Source of the DNA: a bacterium
GTDB taxonomy: Bacteria > UBA8248
Length of the DNA stretch: 64,000 nt
Assembly (NCBI GenBank): GCA_965213625.1
Contig: CBDBZU010000004.1
Span: 192,001 to 256,000, forward strand
Direction of reading: 5' to 3'
The position numbers and the translations under genes were made by a program. Positions 40,040 through 43,530 of the stretch are shown piece by piece. The number at the start of each line of letters is the position of its first letter. Within the stretch, counting starts at the first letter, position 1. The notes beneath the pieces are model-generated. The model did no database searches, was not told where the DNA came from, and saw only the letters and a list, made by a program, of their open reading frames with translations.

Positions 40040-41275
40040 ATGAGCAAAGCGTCCACCGGACCCGCCCTTCGTTATGGCGAATTCGTTCCCCTCGTCGCCC
40101 TTCTGATGGCGCTCGTCGCGCTCTCGATTGACGCGATACTGCCGGCGCTGCCCGCGATAGGCCACGACCTCGGGGCGCCGCGCAGAAACGACGTTCAGTT
40201 CGTCGTCACGGCCGTGCTCCTGGGGCTCGGCCTCGGGCAGATCGTTTTCGGGCCTCTCTCTGACGGAATCGGACGCAAGCCCTCTATCAATACCGGCCTC
40301 GTTCTCTTCATGCTGGGATGTGTCATGAGCATCTTCGCACACACTTTCGAGGTGATGATTGCGGGCCGCATATTGCAGGGCATCGGAATCGCGGGACCGC
40401 GCATCGTGACCGTCGCCCTGGTGCGCGATCAATACGAAGGACGCCAGATGGCCCGCCTCATGTCGTTTGCGATGGCCGTGTTCATTCTCATTCCCACCGT
40501 CGCACCAGTCCTCGGACAGGGGATACAGTGGCTGGGCGGCTGGCGCGCGATATTCGCAGCTTTCTTCATCATCGCCGCGTTCACGTTCGCATGGTTTTCA
40601 CTTCGCCAGCCGGAAACCCTGCCCTCCGACCTTCGGCGTCCCCTCTCCCCGCGCGTCATCGGTGGAGCCGTCATGGAGGTGCTCAGGATTCGGGCCGCGC
40701 TTGGATACACCGTGGCCACCGGATGCGTTTTCGCGCCGTTCGTGGCCTACCTCAGCTCCTCCCAGCAAATCTTTCAGGAGGCCTACAGGACAGGCGCGCT
40801 GTTCCCGGCCTATTTCGGCGCGCTGGCGCTCGCTTTCGGATGCGCCTCGCTCGTGAACGGGTGGCTCGTAATGAAGTACGGGATGCGCAAGCTCTCGAGG
40901 ATGGCGACGGTGTCCATGACGCTGGTCTCGTTCGTTGCGTGGGCGATGGCCTTCTCCTTCGAGGGACTACCTCCGTTGTGGCTGTTCATGACTTACCTGC
41001 TCGTCGTCTTTCTCTGCATCGGACTCCTCTTCGGAAATCTCAATGCACTCGCCATGGAACCCCTCGGCCATATCGCCGGAGTAGGAGCGGGAGTGGTTGC
41101 TTCGATCTCCACCTTTATTTCGGTGCCGTTCGGAGCGCTCGTGGGTCAAAGTTTCGATGGAACCATGTACGCCCTGATTGCCGCTTTCGGGGTCTTCGGA
41201 GCAGGGACCTACGCCGCCATGAGATGGGCTGAGAGAGGTGAAGGCGAAAAGCGCAGCCGAGATACCGCCGCTTGA
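40040..41275 (+). CDS. Bcr/CflA-family MFS efflux transporter
   Basis: ALSIDAILPALP, GPLSDGIGRKP, GRILQGIG, VRDQYEG; about 12 hydrophobic segments. Confidence 0.9.
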   Translation: MSKASTGPALRYGEFVPLVALLMALVALSIDAILPALPAIGHDLGAPRRNDVQFVVTAVLLGLGLGQIVFGPLSDGIGRKPSINTGLVLFMLGCVMSIFAHTFEVMIAGRILQGIGIAGPRIVTVALVRDQYEGRQMARLMSFAMAVFILIPTVAPVLGQGIQWLGGWRAIFAAFFIIAAFTFAWFSLRQPETLPSDLRRPLSPRVIGGAVMEVLRIRAALGYTVATGCVFAPFVAYLSSSQQIFQEAYRTGALFPAYFGALALAFGCASLVNGWLVMKYGMRKLSRMATVSMTLVSFVAWAMAFSFEGLPPLWLFMTYLLVVFLCIGLLFGNLNALAMEPLGHIAGVGAGVVASISTFISVPFGALVGQSFDGTMYALIAAFGVFGAGTYAAMRWAERGEGEKRSRDTAA

Positions 41276-41595
41276 TCGTGATCGTCAATCGTCCGCTGGA
41301 TATCTCCGGATATCTCAAGAACCACATTTCGCGTCGCGGTAAGTGGGTGCGGTGGTTTATGAATCGACGTGCGCGGCACGGACATAACCATAAGCAAACT
41401 GTTCGCGGGCCGGAAGTTGGAGGACGGCCCGAAAGGGACTCGCCGGGATGCGGGCGAATTGTAACGAATCCACTTTCGGTTTGATTGCAGAGCAGAAGGT
41501 GCCGATTTCAAAAAGACTCAAATATATTTATATGCTCAATAATATCAATCGGCTACGGGAATCTTGAATTTAATACCCGTGTCAGCCCGTATGAA

Positions 41596-41690
<95 letters not shown>

Positions 41691-41789
41691 GCGGGAGCGG
41701 GGCCGTCGCGTGAAAGCGTGAACCGGCCACGCGGTGGTTTGTATATCACGGACGGCGCGGGCCTGTCAGTCCGCCGCCGAGATCGCGCC

Positions 41790-41818
41790 TTGACTTTTCC
41801 GCTCACTTTTTCGATGAT
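41790..41818 (+). promoter_or_regulatory. Sigma70-like promoter divergent from tRNA-Ser
   Basis: TTGACT-N17-GATGAT. Confidence 0.55.
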
Positions 41819-41824
41819 CCCAAG

Positions 41825-41995
41825 TACGTCAGAAAGGAGGTGATCCTAATATGAAAATAGACTGTAGGGACGAGGTGGCTGGAGCCTAGGGGAGAGAGCC
41901 CTGAGGAGATTCACCGGGTTCATCTTCGCCCAGGCGAATCCCCACCAGGCCACCGAACGATGTGAAACCCCGGTCCGCGAGGGCCGGGGTTTTTC
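41825..41995 (+). ncRNA. Structured small transcript with a 16-nt anti-16S-tail sequence and a micro-ORF
   Basis: AGAAAGGAGGTGATCC at 41831-41846; stem 41874-41882/41945-41954 enclosing two hairpins; own promoter and terminator. Confidence 0.6.
41851..41889 (+). CDS. 12-aa micro-ORF MKIDCRDEVAGA
   Basis: ATG follows a maximal Shine-Dalgarno sequence. Confidence 0.5.
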   Translation: MKIDCRDEVAGA

Positions 41996-42000
41996 ACGTC
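41959..42000 (+). terminator. Intrinsic terminator
   Basis: GAAACCCCGGTCC-GCGA-GGGCCGGGGTTTTT (GNRA loop, U tract). Confidence 0.85.
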
Positions 42001-42063
42001 ATCTATTAACGAGAAGTCTTCGTCTTTCACATCATCTGTATTCAAGGATAAGGAGCGCGTTTC

Positions 42064-42522
42064 ATGTCGCAGACGAGTTGGACGGTCTATCTCTCTGGAG
42101 AAGTGCACACGGACTGGCGCGAGCGCATCACCGAGGGCGCGGAGAAAGCGGGGCTGCCGGTCACCTTTCTCGCCCCCGTCACGGACCACGACGCGAGCGA
42201 CGATTGCGGCGTGTCGATTCTCGGCGGTGAGGAAAAACCGTTCTGGAAAGACCGCAAGGGCGCGGGCGTGAACGCCATCAGGACGCGCACGCTCATCGAG
42301 AAGGCGGACGTCGTGGTCGTGCGCTTCGGTGAAAAATACAGGCAGTGGAACGCCGCTTTCGACGCGGGCTACGCGGCAGCTCTGGGAAAAGCCCTCATCA
42401 CCCTGCACGATCCGGGCCACACCCACGCGCTCAAGGAAGTCGACGCCTCCGCCATGGCCGTGGCCGAAGAGCCCGAGCAGGTGGTGCGGATTCTGAACTA
42501 CGCCATCAACGGAGCATTGTAG
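42064..42522 (+). CDS. YtoQ-family protein (nucleoside deoxyribosyltransferase-like fold)
   Basis: VYLSGEVHTDWRE...VVRFGEKYRQWNAAFDAGYAAALGK...HALKEVD. Confidence 0.88.
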   Translation: MSQTSWTVYLSGEVHTDWRERITEGAEKAGLPVTFLAPVTDHDASDDCGVSILGGEEKPFWKDRKGAGVNAIRTRTLIEKADVVVVRFGEKYRQWNAAFDAGYAAALGKALITLHDPGHTHALKEVDASAMAVAEEPEQVVRILNYAINGAL

Positions 42523-42528
42523 CGGGCA

Positions 42529-43530
42529 TCACCTCCCCCGCACCCCGTAGGCTTCGGGATTCACGAGCGTGGAGGGTCGCTCGCCCCGGAAGTACGCGAG
42601 AACGCATTCGGTCGTGTGGTGGAGGGTGTTGCGAATCGCATCCTCGCCACGGCCGCCCAGGTGGGGGGCGAGCACGGCATTCTCGAGCCCGAAGACGGGA
42701 TGATCGTAATCGGGCGGCTCCTCGGGGAACACGTCTATCCCCGCGCCCCGGATGACGCCCTCTTGCAGAGCTTCCGTAACGGCGTCCAGATCGAAGACGG
42801 GACCCCGCGAAGTGTTGAATACGTAGGCGTCGGGCTTCATGAGGCTTAAAATCTCGCGGTTGATGATGTGCGTCGTCTCGGGCGTCAGCGGCACGTGGCA
42901 TGTCAGGTAGTCCGATTCCCTCGCCAGCTCTTCCAGGCTCACGAAGCGCACGCCCAACTTTTTCGCCGTCTCCTCATCTTGCACGATGTCGTGGGCGATC
43001 ACGTTCATGTCGAAGGCGACGGCCCGTTTCGCCACCTGCTTGCCGATGTTCCCGAAGCCCAGTATCCCCATCGTCATACCGTTCAGGGGGCGCATGGGCG
43101 GCTGAATCTCCCGCCAGAGGCCCTTGCGGATGTTCACGTCCAGCCAGCCGATGCGCCGGACGGCGCAAAGCAGCAGGCCGAAGAGGTGCTCCGCCACGGA
43201 CTGCGAGTTCTGCCCCGCCGAGTTCGCGACGAGTATGCCCCGCTCGGTGGCCGCCGGAATGTCGACGTTGTTCAGGCCCACGCCCGCGCGCACGATAATT
43301 TTCACCCCGCGCGCGTTGTCCATCACATTGCTCGTATAAGGCTCCGCCCCTGCGATGACGGCCGTTACGTCCGGCAGGGCCGCGATGACGTCTTCCTCGG
43401 GCATGTAGCCCCGGCACTCGTCCAGGCGTACCTCCAGCCCCTCCTCCACCAGGGGCTGAAAAATCTCCATCGGATCGTCGAAATTCAGGATAAATGGGGT
43501 TCCCACCCAGACCACGGGTCTATCGCTCAT
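42529..43530 (-). CDS. D-isomer-specific 2-hydroxyacid dehydrogenase (SerA-like)
   Basis: RAGVG, GILGFGNIG, NTSRG, DVFPEEPP, APHLGG. Confidence 0.92.
   Translation of the reverse strand: MSDRPVVWVGTPFILNFDDPMEIFQPLVEEGLEVRLDECRGYMPEEDVIAALPDVTAVIAGAEPYTSNVMDNARGVKIIVRAGVGLNNVDIPAATERGILVANSAGQNSQSVAEHLFGLLLCAVRRIGWLDVNIRKGLWREIQPPMRPLNGMTMGILGFGNIGKQVAKRAVAFDMNVIAHDIVQDEETAKKLGVRFVSLEELARESDYLTCHVPLTPETTHIINREILSLMKPDAYVFNTSRGPVFDLDAVTEALQEGVIRGAGIDVFPEEPPDYDHPVFGLENAVLAPHLGGRGEDAIRNTLHHTTECVLAYFRGERPSTLVNPEAYGVRGR

Follow-up and report, generated by a model that had tools for sequence, protein, structure and literature searches.

The described objects closest to the one considered here are rreB and rreR, small mRNAs of alpha-proteobacteria of approximately 165 nucleotides (nt), which carry a Shine-Dalgarno sequence (SD) of 16-17 nt and a GTG start codon (Hahn et al., RNA Biol 2016; PMC5711450). 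According to this article, rreB has an open reading frame (ORF) of 14 codons and an adjoining tRNA-Gly gene, and rreR has an ORF of 18 codons. The rreB RNA co-sediments with 30S subunits, for which the SD has to be extended on its 5' side; translation of this RNA is weak, and turning its start codon into a stop codon lengthens the half-life from 10 to 37 min. A 20-fold overexpression of the ribosome-binding form left growth unaffected, the ribosomes were judged to far outnumber the RNA, and the function was called "elusive"; the RreB and RreR peptides are unstructured, and overproducing an RNA form expected to raise the RreB level gave no phenotype (PMC5711450). Here we describe an element of similar design in a stretch of 64,000 nt from a bacterium of the lineage UBA8248 (assembly GCA_965213625.1, contig CBDBZU010000004.1, positions 192,001 to 256,000 of the forward strand), hereafter referred to as the window; the element is located between a tRNA-Ser gene and a YtoQ-family gene.

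Two further described systems are relevant. Ms_IGR-5 (Rfam family RF02471) is a validated yet uncharacterised small RNA (sRNA) of Mycobacterium smegmatis, whose 5' A is capped with nicotinamide adenine dinucleotide (bioRxiv 10.1101/2021.12.14.472595); it has been seen again in cold-stress RNA-seq data (PMC10454040), and a match to the Rfam model in Streptomyces lividans was confirmed by RNA-seq (PMC8079986). In the literature passages on Ms_IGR-5 that were available to us, neither an ORF nor a long SD is mentioned. In the STAB-SD of the Bacillus thuringiensis cry3A mRNA, the bound 30S subunit shields the RNA from RNase J1, and 5'-to-3' decay is blocked (PMC4113751).

As a preferred interpretation, to which we assign a probability of about 0.55, we suggest that the window element is a stand-alone rre-type small mRNA built to dock on the 30S subunit, that it is a divergent relative of Ms_IGR-5, and that its behavior is gated by translation. 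The starting points of this interpretation are the anatomy of the locus, its conservation, the covariation of its stems, the ORF whose end does not depend on the frame, the single copy per genome, and the presence of the element in RNA libraries.

The element begins 5 nt upstream of an unusually long SD, which is situated beside the 5'-terminal helix. The 16-mer AGAAAGGAGGTGATCC is an exact complement of the 3' tail of the 16S rRNA of the same genome. If at most one mismatch is allowed, it has two sites in the 4.15-Mb genome, one being the locus itself and the other being located where the 16S rRNA gene ends (3'), on the opposite strand. Elsewhere in the genome, no stretch of at least 13 nt can pair with the tail, the next best one being a single 12-mer. 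The last position of the Rfam model SSU_rRNA_bacteria falls at position 1503 of the 16S rRNA locus L002, so that the model takes in 14 of the 16 nt, with the initial two (AG) falling just past its end; the pairing of these two nucleotides depends on where the mature 16S 3' end is. The SD core shared by the whole family is AAAGGAGGUGRUCC. The gap between the end of the complement and the ATG is 4 nt.

Upstream of the SD, there is a promoter of the sigma-70 type with nine of twelve positions matching the consensus. The 1.3-kb region contains two promoter-like sites, compared to 0.4 +/- 0.7 in shuffled sequences. In all 24 homologous loci, the TTGAC of the -35 box is invariant and the -10 box has the form xATxAT. 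At the other end, the stem of the intrinsic terminator covaries and remains folded when the ORF region is masked. An earlier note on this DNA, made from the letters alone, had predicted the promoter, an unusually long exact complement of the 16S tail, a 12-codon ORF whose 3' end pairs downstream, a terminator with a GNRA loop, and a unit divergent from the tRNA-Ser gene and separate from the next gene; all of these features are indeed present (Table 1), the complement being the longest in the genome. The more general idea of a stand-alone RNA built around binding of the 16S tail is likewise supported; the co-sedimentation experiment suggested in the note has been carried out for rreB, which was recovered with 30S subunits (PMC5711450).

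Table 1. Features of the locus and its neighbours, in window positions.
Feature	Position	Strand	Details
Sigma-70-type promoter	41790..41818	+	-35 box TTGACT (41790-95), spacer 17 nt, -10 box GATGAT (41813-18)
Whole inferred transcript, 169 nt	41826..41994	+	Starts with the conserved 5' A and stops where the U-run of the terminator ends; conservation begins at 41826
Extended SD	41831..41846	+	AGAAAGGAGGTGATCC, 16-nt perfect complement of own 16S rRNA 3' tail
Mini-ORF, 12 codons and TAG	41851..41889	+	ATG at 41851, reads MKIDCRDEVAGA, TAG at 41887-41889
P0, 5' strand (CGUC)	41827..41830	+	Pairs with 41869-41872
P0, 3' strand (GACG)	41869..41872	+	Inside codons 7-8
P1, 5' strand (GGUGGCUGG)	41874..41882	+	Codons 8-11, overlaps the conserved GAGGUGRC motif
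P1b, 5' strand (GGGGA)	41889..41893	+	From the stop-codon G; pairs with 41939-41943
P2 hairpin (GAGCCC ... GGGUUC, inner stem)	41896..41921	+	9/9 pairs with both-sided changes on A3
P3 hairpin (UUCGC-CCAG-GCGAA)	41925..41938	+	4/5 pairs with both-sided changes on A3
P1b (UCCCC) and P1 (CCAGGCCACC), 3' strands	41939..41954	+	Within the conserved GAAUCC..CAG..YCACC block
Intrinsic terminator	41965..41994	+	13-bp stem, GCGA loop, U-run
tRNA-Ser(GGA), upstream neighbour	41598-41690	-	ARAGORN
YtoQ-family gene, downstream neighbour	42064-42522		PF11071, E 8e-66

The main observation concerns the mini-ORF. It is present in all copies considered, that is, in 24/24 loci of the alignment A1, in 27/27 of A4, and in 70/70 dereplicated loci from different phyla. 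The latter come from a scan with a degenerate motif derived from two families (the SD core, then TGTA, then GAGGTGRC), which made no demand on the start codon, the frame or the stop. In each of the 70 loci, a start codon is located 7-12 nt after GGAGG and opens a frame of 11-15 codons. The starts are ATG (n = 38), GTG (n = 23) and TTG (n = 9), and the stops are TAG (n = 39), TGA (n = 18) and TAA (n = 13), these counts being the first tally, after which one locus was re-called. For the GAGGUG near the end of the ORF, three reading frames occur (47, 20 and 3 loci), yielding peptides with ..EVA.., ..RGG.. or ..RRW.., and the stop codon always lies 13-17 nt past the G of GAGGUG. As the stop position is fixed whatever the frame, ribosome passage rather than the peptide would be the selected feature. 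By a rough estimate, such a frame would be met by chance in a few per cent of random loci; given the kinship among the loci, no formal probability is attached to this number. Among five matches found by the covariance model only and lacking the motif, four keep the SD, a 9-15-codon ORF and the stop position, two of these four having no Cys codon. In this sequence comparison, the end point of the ORF is thus conserved across three frames and three stop codons, and the peptide is not conserved between lineages; both points are new.

The C-terminal residue is Ala in 20 of the 70 dereplicated relatives, Arg in 18, Thr in 13, Val in 6, Ser in 5, Cys in 4, His in 2, and Gln and Asp in one each. Hence the likeness of the peptide end to ssrA degrons, which the earlier note had pointed out, does not extend to the family. 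A type I toxin mRNA, mentioned in the earlier note as a possible identity, was rejected, since MKIDCRDEVAGA has 12 residues and is charged; an antisense transcript was not looked for.

The same data bear on the alternative that the locus is a small-protein gene, the 12-residue peptide being the effector and the SD and stems serving to throttle or time its synthesis. All copies examined do retain the start, frame and stop, within the family of the window the core C-[RSI]-[DGS]-E-V is stable, and the authors of the rre article favoured conserved small proteins (PMC5711450); on the other hand, conservation of the peptide ends at the boundaries of lineages, with GAGGUG being read in three frames, and the Cys is missing in 2 of 4 clear model-only matches. 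Moreover, the positions that would be synonymous are nucleotide-invariant across the genus, and codon 7 changes in concert with the 5' end of the RNA. The RreB and RreR peptides are reported to be unstructured, and overproduction of the RNA form expected to raise RreB to be without phenotype (PMC5711450). On balance, we consider a peptide effector unlikely.

A second alternative, put forward in the earlier note, is a ribosome sponge or store, or a checker of the 16S tail, that would work without productive translation. It agrees with the complement spanning the whole single-stranded 16S tail, and with the finding of rreB on 30S subunits in gradients (PMC5711450). Without elongation, however, a stop at a fixed distance in three frames would escape selection; its constancy indicates that ribosomes read to the end rather than stay parked. 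In addition, there is one gene copy per genome, and for rreB overexpression does not slow growth and the ribosomes are judged to far outnumber the RNA (PMC5711450). Thus, the storage or capture of ribosomes as the function of the element is not borne out, and we regard this alternative as quite improbable; a part played in the maturation or quality control of the 16S 3' end, also raised in the earlier note, is conceivable.

The RNA is predicted to be strongly folded: a 172-nt stretch has the folding energy of -71.9 kcal/mol, compared to -57.3 +/- 4.1 for dinucleotide shuffles (z = -3.58; none of 200 shuffles was as good). The first helix, P0, closes a loop of approximately 40 nt that contains the SD, the start codon and six codons. 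On the alignment A3, which comprises 25 diverse copies, 97% of the P0 cells are paired and changes on both sides are observed (CAUC/GAUG, CGC/GCG). Across phyla, 48 distinct pairs of P0 strands have the mean duplex energy of -4.7 kcal/mol, versus -2.45 +/- 0.25 kcal/mol with permuted partners, and none of 2000 permutations was as low. In P1 of the computed fold, GGTGGCTGG (41874-41882) pairs with CCAGGCCACC (41945-41954), and the pair 55-130 of A1 covaries (A-U, n = 15; G-C, n = 6; G-U, n = 2). Overall, for five helices on A3, 89.7% of the cells are paired and 19 of the 32 pairs change on both sides, with none of 500 column shuffles reaching this level and with 34-59% of cells paired when the partners are slid by 1-3 columns; A3 was fitted to a covariance model, which favours structure. 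In the MAFFT alignment of close copies, 97% of the cells are paired and double changes are few. The sequence of P3 is nearly invariant in the genus.

Thus, conserved homologs with covarying stems, on which the earlier note had staked its proposal, do exist. Its version of the fold stands in part: P1 is confirmed, and the inner hairpins that it had placed at 41888-41902 and 41905-41943 are replaced by those supported by covariation, namely 41896-41921, 41925-41938 and the helix 41889-41893/41939-41943. P0, absent from the earlier note, is likewise supported by covariation. A helix between RGGGA and the UCCU that terminates the SD was dropped in favour of P0, being broken in several genera upon inspection of A3 by eye.

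Across phyla, the part with the SD and the ORF is the most conserved one, the inner domain varies both in sequence and length, and the 3' block GAAUCC..CAG..YCACC is conserved. This 3' block would be expected if the element were an sRNA acting by base-pairing or protein binding through its 3' domain, with the 5' helix, the SD and the mini-ORF forming a stabiliser similar to STAB-SD. The position of the SD, 5 nt from the RNA end and beside the 5'-terminal helix, is also compatible with such a stabiliser, as a 30S subunit bound at STAB-SD blocks decay in the 5'-to-3' direction (PMC4113751). In that case, however, neither the variability of the inner domain between phyla nor the strongest conservation falling on the SD and ORF would be expected, and removal of the rreB start codon stabilised rather than destabilised the RNA (PMC5711450). 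Besides, STAB-SD lacks a translation start and lies in the leader of a long mRNA (PMC4113751), whereas in the present case the SD is followed by a start codon with a complete mini-ORF, in an RNA of no more than 169 nt; STAB-SD is defined by an SD that does not direct translation, and a start codon with a properly spaced ORF is present in 70/70 loci. We therefore assign a low probability to this alternative, slightly below that of the ribosome sponge.

The element is widespread in the phylum of the window. By blastn, one copy each was found in 22/22 other genomes of the genus and in one of the two genomes representing two other sampled genera of the family, and no copy was found in 17 more distant genomes. 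The covariance model R1, built from the blastn copies, yielded one full-length copy in 37/41 other genomes of the family, and the second model R2 yielded a copy in 44/51 genomes of the phylum (43/50 without the genome of the window itself), including 6/7 in the sister family. One of these, in the sister-family genome G028, was rejected since it is the 5' end of a DUF1059 gene, leaving 42/50 other genomes. This false match (L070:840-1001) is the only R2 match in G028, a genome of low GC content (Pfam E 1.3e-4 for DUF1059); the mini-ORF (MKIDCRDEV) is similar both to the beginning of the protein, MKKLTCRDLGG, and to the nucleotides around CUGUAGAGAUC, which may be chance or a hint at the origin of the mini-ORF. 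In the sister family, the ORF has a UUG start, a UGA stop and two in-frame 3-nt insertions (MKKSSCSDREVAEV). In one more case (genome G047, L058:1-133, at the start of a contig), unrelated sequence stands in place of the first ~25 bases, the SD among them, and the sister species G048 is normal; the altered 5' part is probably an artefact of the assembly end.

A promoter of its own, approximately 7 nt upstream of the conserved A, and a terminator of its own accompany the element in every genus; in the 18 loci from other genera, a terminator following the element was read from the sequence in all cases. At the same time, the neighbours change. The YtoQ gene is located downstream in 21/24 close loci and in 0/18 loci of other genera. 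The upstream tRNA gene is tRNA-Ser(GGA) in 23/24 close loci, and in the 18 others it is tRNA-Ser (n = 8), tRNA-Cys (n = 6) or none (n = 4). Since the neighbours change and the promoter and terminator are kept, the element is a stand-alone gene and not a leader. The opposite possibility, a cis-acting leader or attenuator of the ytoQ-like gene, derives from the latter being situated ~70 nt past the terminator in 21/24 close loci. It is very improbable, as the gene is missing downstream in 3/24 close loci and in all 18 of those from other genera, across phyla there is no recurring neighbour, the terminator folded with the ORF masked leaves no antiterminator evident, and the contigs from RNA libraries stop at the terminator. 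An attenuator operated by a leader peptide was rejected on the same grounds, that is, the persistence of the terminator with the ORF masked and the non-conserved downstream gene. The YtoQ-family proteins themselves (window 42064-42522 and loci L003-L024) are 87-97% identical within the genus in the 21/24 loci; no obvious promoter match is seen in the ~70 nt between the terminator and the gene.

Beyond the phylum of the window, the motif scan of 185,579 species genomes yielded at least 117 loci, all with the same layout. The record titles among the matches listed include Actinomadura, Spirillospora, Acidimicrobiia, Planctomycetota, Binatia, Deltaproteobacteria, Syntrophobacterales, Acidobacteria, Sumerlaeota, Eisenbacteria, Tectomicrobia, Verrucomicrobiia and Fimbriimonadaceae, as well as metagenome-assembled genomes labelled Nitrospinota; phylum names are taken from these titles, and bin labels may be wrong. 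With this qualification, the family appears, by sequence similarity, to be wider than reported and to span many phyla. Model R2 finds exactly one site in each of five whole genomes of other phyla.

The frequency of the element differs between phyla. The strict motif is rare among genomes of the phylum to which G060 belongs (3/301, including G060). The cross-phylum model R3 has matches there in 6/41 genomes at E <= 1e-3 (including G060, hence five among the 40 others), and in 2/40 others at E <= 1e-5, with G095 (1.2e-5) just outside. In the phylum of G058, an Actinomadura genome, the numbers are 21/40 at E <= 1e-3, including G058, and 18/39 others at E <= 1e-5; in the phylum of G062, 10/40 at E <= 1e-3, including G062, and 5/39 others at E <= 1e-5. 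Matches near E 1e-3 are doubtful, because the 26 bases opposite each 16S gene end score 19.1 bits with R3 (E ~0.002-0.006 per record; plasmids W01-W05), which amounts to a noise floor for a census with this model, and a 24.6-bit match (L196) is without ORF. In the phylum of G058, two genomes have two R3 matches each (G370 and G383, both matches being strong in the latter, 53.1 and 44.8 bits), and thus the family is not always single-copy; these could be duplications or contaminated bins. Apart from G058, this phylum has 20 positive genomes out of 39, and two of these, G363 and G380, are unpublished. Another unpublished genome, G059 (L084), is counted among the five whole genomes, the 16 cross-phylum loci compared with the Rfam and R2 models (see below) and the 117 loci used for the analysis of flanks, and lies outside the 70 dereplicated loci, A5 and A6.

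The flanks of these loci show no common context. In a Pfam tally of flanking ORFs, no family occurred in more than 3/113, a weak negative given the greedy choice of ORFs by their length in DNA that is GC-rich, and an all-against-all BLAST comparison of flanking ORFs of the 117 listed loci gave lineage-specific clusters only. A tRNA gene lies at most 1.2 kb away in 15 of the 117 listed loci, 12 of them from the lineage of the window.

In the scan of the window region 40500-43500 with Rfam models, only tRNA-Ser was above the threshold. The RF02471 model nevertheless aligns with the window copy over its full length, beginning at the same 5' A (41826), with the score of 16.1 bits compared to the gathering threshold of 45 (E 1.1 in the 3-kb scan and 0.36 genome-wide), which is the best of four RF02471 matches in the genome. 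Among 16 loci from other phyla, five pass the threshold, namely L075 (106.5 bits), L101 (95.9), L085 (93.6), L087 (91.6) and L146 (52.3), that is, Actinomadura-type copies at 92-106 bits and one labelled Tectomicrobia at 52. Conversely, R2, built only from the phylum of the window, matches the Actinomadura-type copies at E 3e-7 to 5e-6, and 15/16 of the loci at E <= 2.3e-4, these loci having been pre-chosen by the shared motif. Because relatives found by the motif pass the threshold and R2 matches them, the window copy appears to be kin of RF02471; in terms of sequence it is a divergent relative of Ms_IGR-5 that falls below Rfam's own membership rule. The Rfam consensus of Ms_IGR-5 contains GGAAGGAGGUGGUCC, a UUG start, 12 codons, GAGGUG, and UAG 15 nt later; the difference is that it is filed as a non-coding sRNA of Actinobacteria.

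The similarity to rreB and rreR is in design. In both cases there is a stand-alone transcript (~165 nt there, 169 nt here) with a sigma-70-type promoter and a terminator, and a perfect complement of the own 16S 3' end of 16-17 nt is followed by a very short ORF. As in rreB, a tRNA gene adjoins (tRNA-Gly there, tRNA-Ser here). As in the rre genes, no context is conserved beyond the family, and the peptides differ among clades. Spacing of the rreB type is seen in relatives of the window copy: 27/70 start 7 nt after GGAGG (20 of them with GTG), and in L081 the complement runs into the GTG start. Unlike in rreB, the start in the window is ATG, 4 nt past the complement, and so does not overlap with it; moreover, in the predicted folds the SD of rreB is mostly in a hairpin, whereas here it is in the loop closed by P0. 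Leaving aside sequence kinship with rreB, by analogy of design as published the window element would be a new rre-type small mRNA. The earlier note could not assign the element to a known family; this no longer holds, as relatives pass the RF02471 threshold and the element is of one kind with the rre genes.

The rre genes were reported in that article from alpha-proteobacteria only (PMC5711450; later citing papers were not searched), and none of the 117 motif-scan loci listed is an alpha-proteobacterial record. On the six plasmids of Azospirillum sp. B510, R3 gave SD-sized matches only, and blastn of the plasmid collection gave ordinary ribosome-binding sites only. Five of these plasmids contain eight sites of AAGGAGGTGATCC, seven of them being ends of rRNA genes. 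The eighth, on pAB510d, was rejected as an rre gene, since the ORF that follows it continues for at least 59 codons and is no mini-ORF. At this site (NC_013858.1, ~339770-339800, minus strand; L206), CAGAAAGGAGGTGATCCA is directly followed by ATG, in an unannotated gap between genes of the mandelate racemase family and carbonic anhydrase; the frame, which begins with a hydrophobic, signal-like stretch, is a long ORF preceded by an oversized SD. The site may, or may not, correspond to the plasmid-borne Azospirillum "rre" of PMC5711450.

The element also resembles transfer-messenger RNA (tmRNA), as both are small stable RNAs with a short reading frame engaging ribosomes. The differences are that the element lacks a tRNA-like domain, the frame here has its own SD and start codon, and the C-terminus of the peptide is not conserved. 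In addition, ARAGORN finds only tRNA-Ser in the window, and no Rfam tmRNA match is seen at E <= 10.

As for expression, assembled Logan contigs from RNA libraries of three studies cover the element; strand, ends and level are beyond the reach of such contigs, which give a weak hint of the transcript ends. The contigs cover 41826-41994 exactly (X3), 41829-41992 (X2) and 41795-41948 (X1), and none of the three reaches the flanking genes, including the YtoQ gene. In the run X9, whose kind is undeclared and which is probably DNA, the whole stretch is evenly covered. The X1 contig ends in 16 unrelated letters and that of X2 is preceded by 147 such letters; the contigs may be chimeric. Base differences of X2 and X3 (41949 G>A, 41963 T>G) correspond to the variant of locus L004, and hence these contigs come from a close relative. 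Taken together, the contigs weakly hint at a discrete, abundant transcript, and the absence of a transcript, which the earlier note would have counted against itself, is not what is seen.

The following mode of action can be proposed for the rre-type mRNA gated by translation. The sigma-70-type promoter would yield an RNA of 169 nt with a 5' A, ending at a strong terminator. P0 would tie down the 5' end, so that the loop of ~40 nt would display the 14-16-nt complement of the 16S tail, the start codon as well as the first codons. The 30S subunit would bind the oversized SD very tightly, as shown for rreB, and translation would begin, probably inefficiently, by the same analogy. The ribosome would then unzip P0, and subsequently P1 and P1b, and terminate at a fixed spot, the base of the inner domain; because the stop position is frame-independent, the ribosome would have to unzip the stems to reach the stop. 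The terminator is constitutive, and ribosome engagement would set the fold of the RNA and probably its lifetime. The output could be an exposed conserved 3' strand, ribosome-dependent decay, or some other one. In this scheme, the conserved product would be the encounter of the RNA with the ribosome rather than the peptide.

Several observations weigh against this interpretation. The binding of 30S, translation and switching of the window RNA are all things that we infer, the translation-gated switching itself included. When the single sequence is considered as an ensemble of folds, the SD is unpaired to little more than one half (0.54), and in the fold of minimum energy the 5' end has a partner other than that in P0. 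The score of the window copy with RF02471 is only 16.1 bits at the threshold of 45. The set of 70 loci was selected by a motif containing the SD, TGTA and GAGGTGRC, so that the SD lengths and the Cys (69/70) are partly built in, and the loci are kin to each other, making the counts non-independent events. Inside lineages the peptide is well conserved (e.g. xxCRDEVxxx across the family of the window), and it may have a role. Finally, the RNA contigs are no proof of transcript ends, strand or level; the X1 contig begins at 41795, inside the promoter, and thus may originate from DNA carry-over.

In the sources available to us, alpha-proteobacteria are the only group for which small mRNAs with an SD of 16-17 nt have been described, and Ms_IGR-5 is known solely as an sRNA of Actinobacteria; the same design is now seen under the names of many phyla. 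What is added here is the breadth of the family, the architecture of P0 and P1, and the rule for the end point of the ORF, which can be tested directly: the ORF ends 13-17 nt past GAGGUG in any reading frame. More tentatively, and with less than even odds, Ms_IGR-5, the rre mRNAs and the present copies could form one ancient, nearly pan-bacterial family of translation-gated switches that report the availability of free ribosomes, or translation capacity, to some partner; the oversized SD would catch a free 30S subunit, and the helicase action of the ribosome over a track of 9-15 codons would open the closing stems. As the family has members in tractable species (Mycobacterium smegmatis, Streptomyces), direct testing is possible. 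If the interpretation is true, bacteria widely keep a dedicated RNA whose sole conserved business is an unusual encounter with the ribosome, which would bear on how cells sense or tune their translation capacity.

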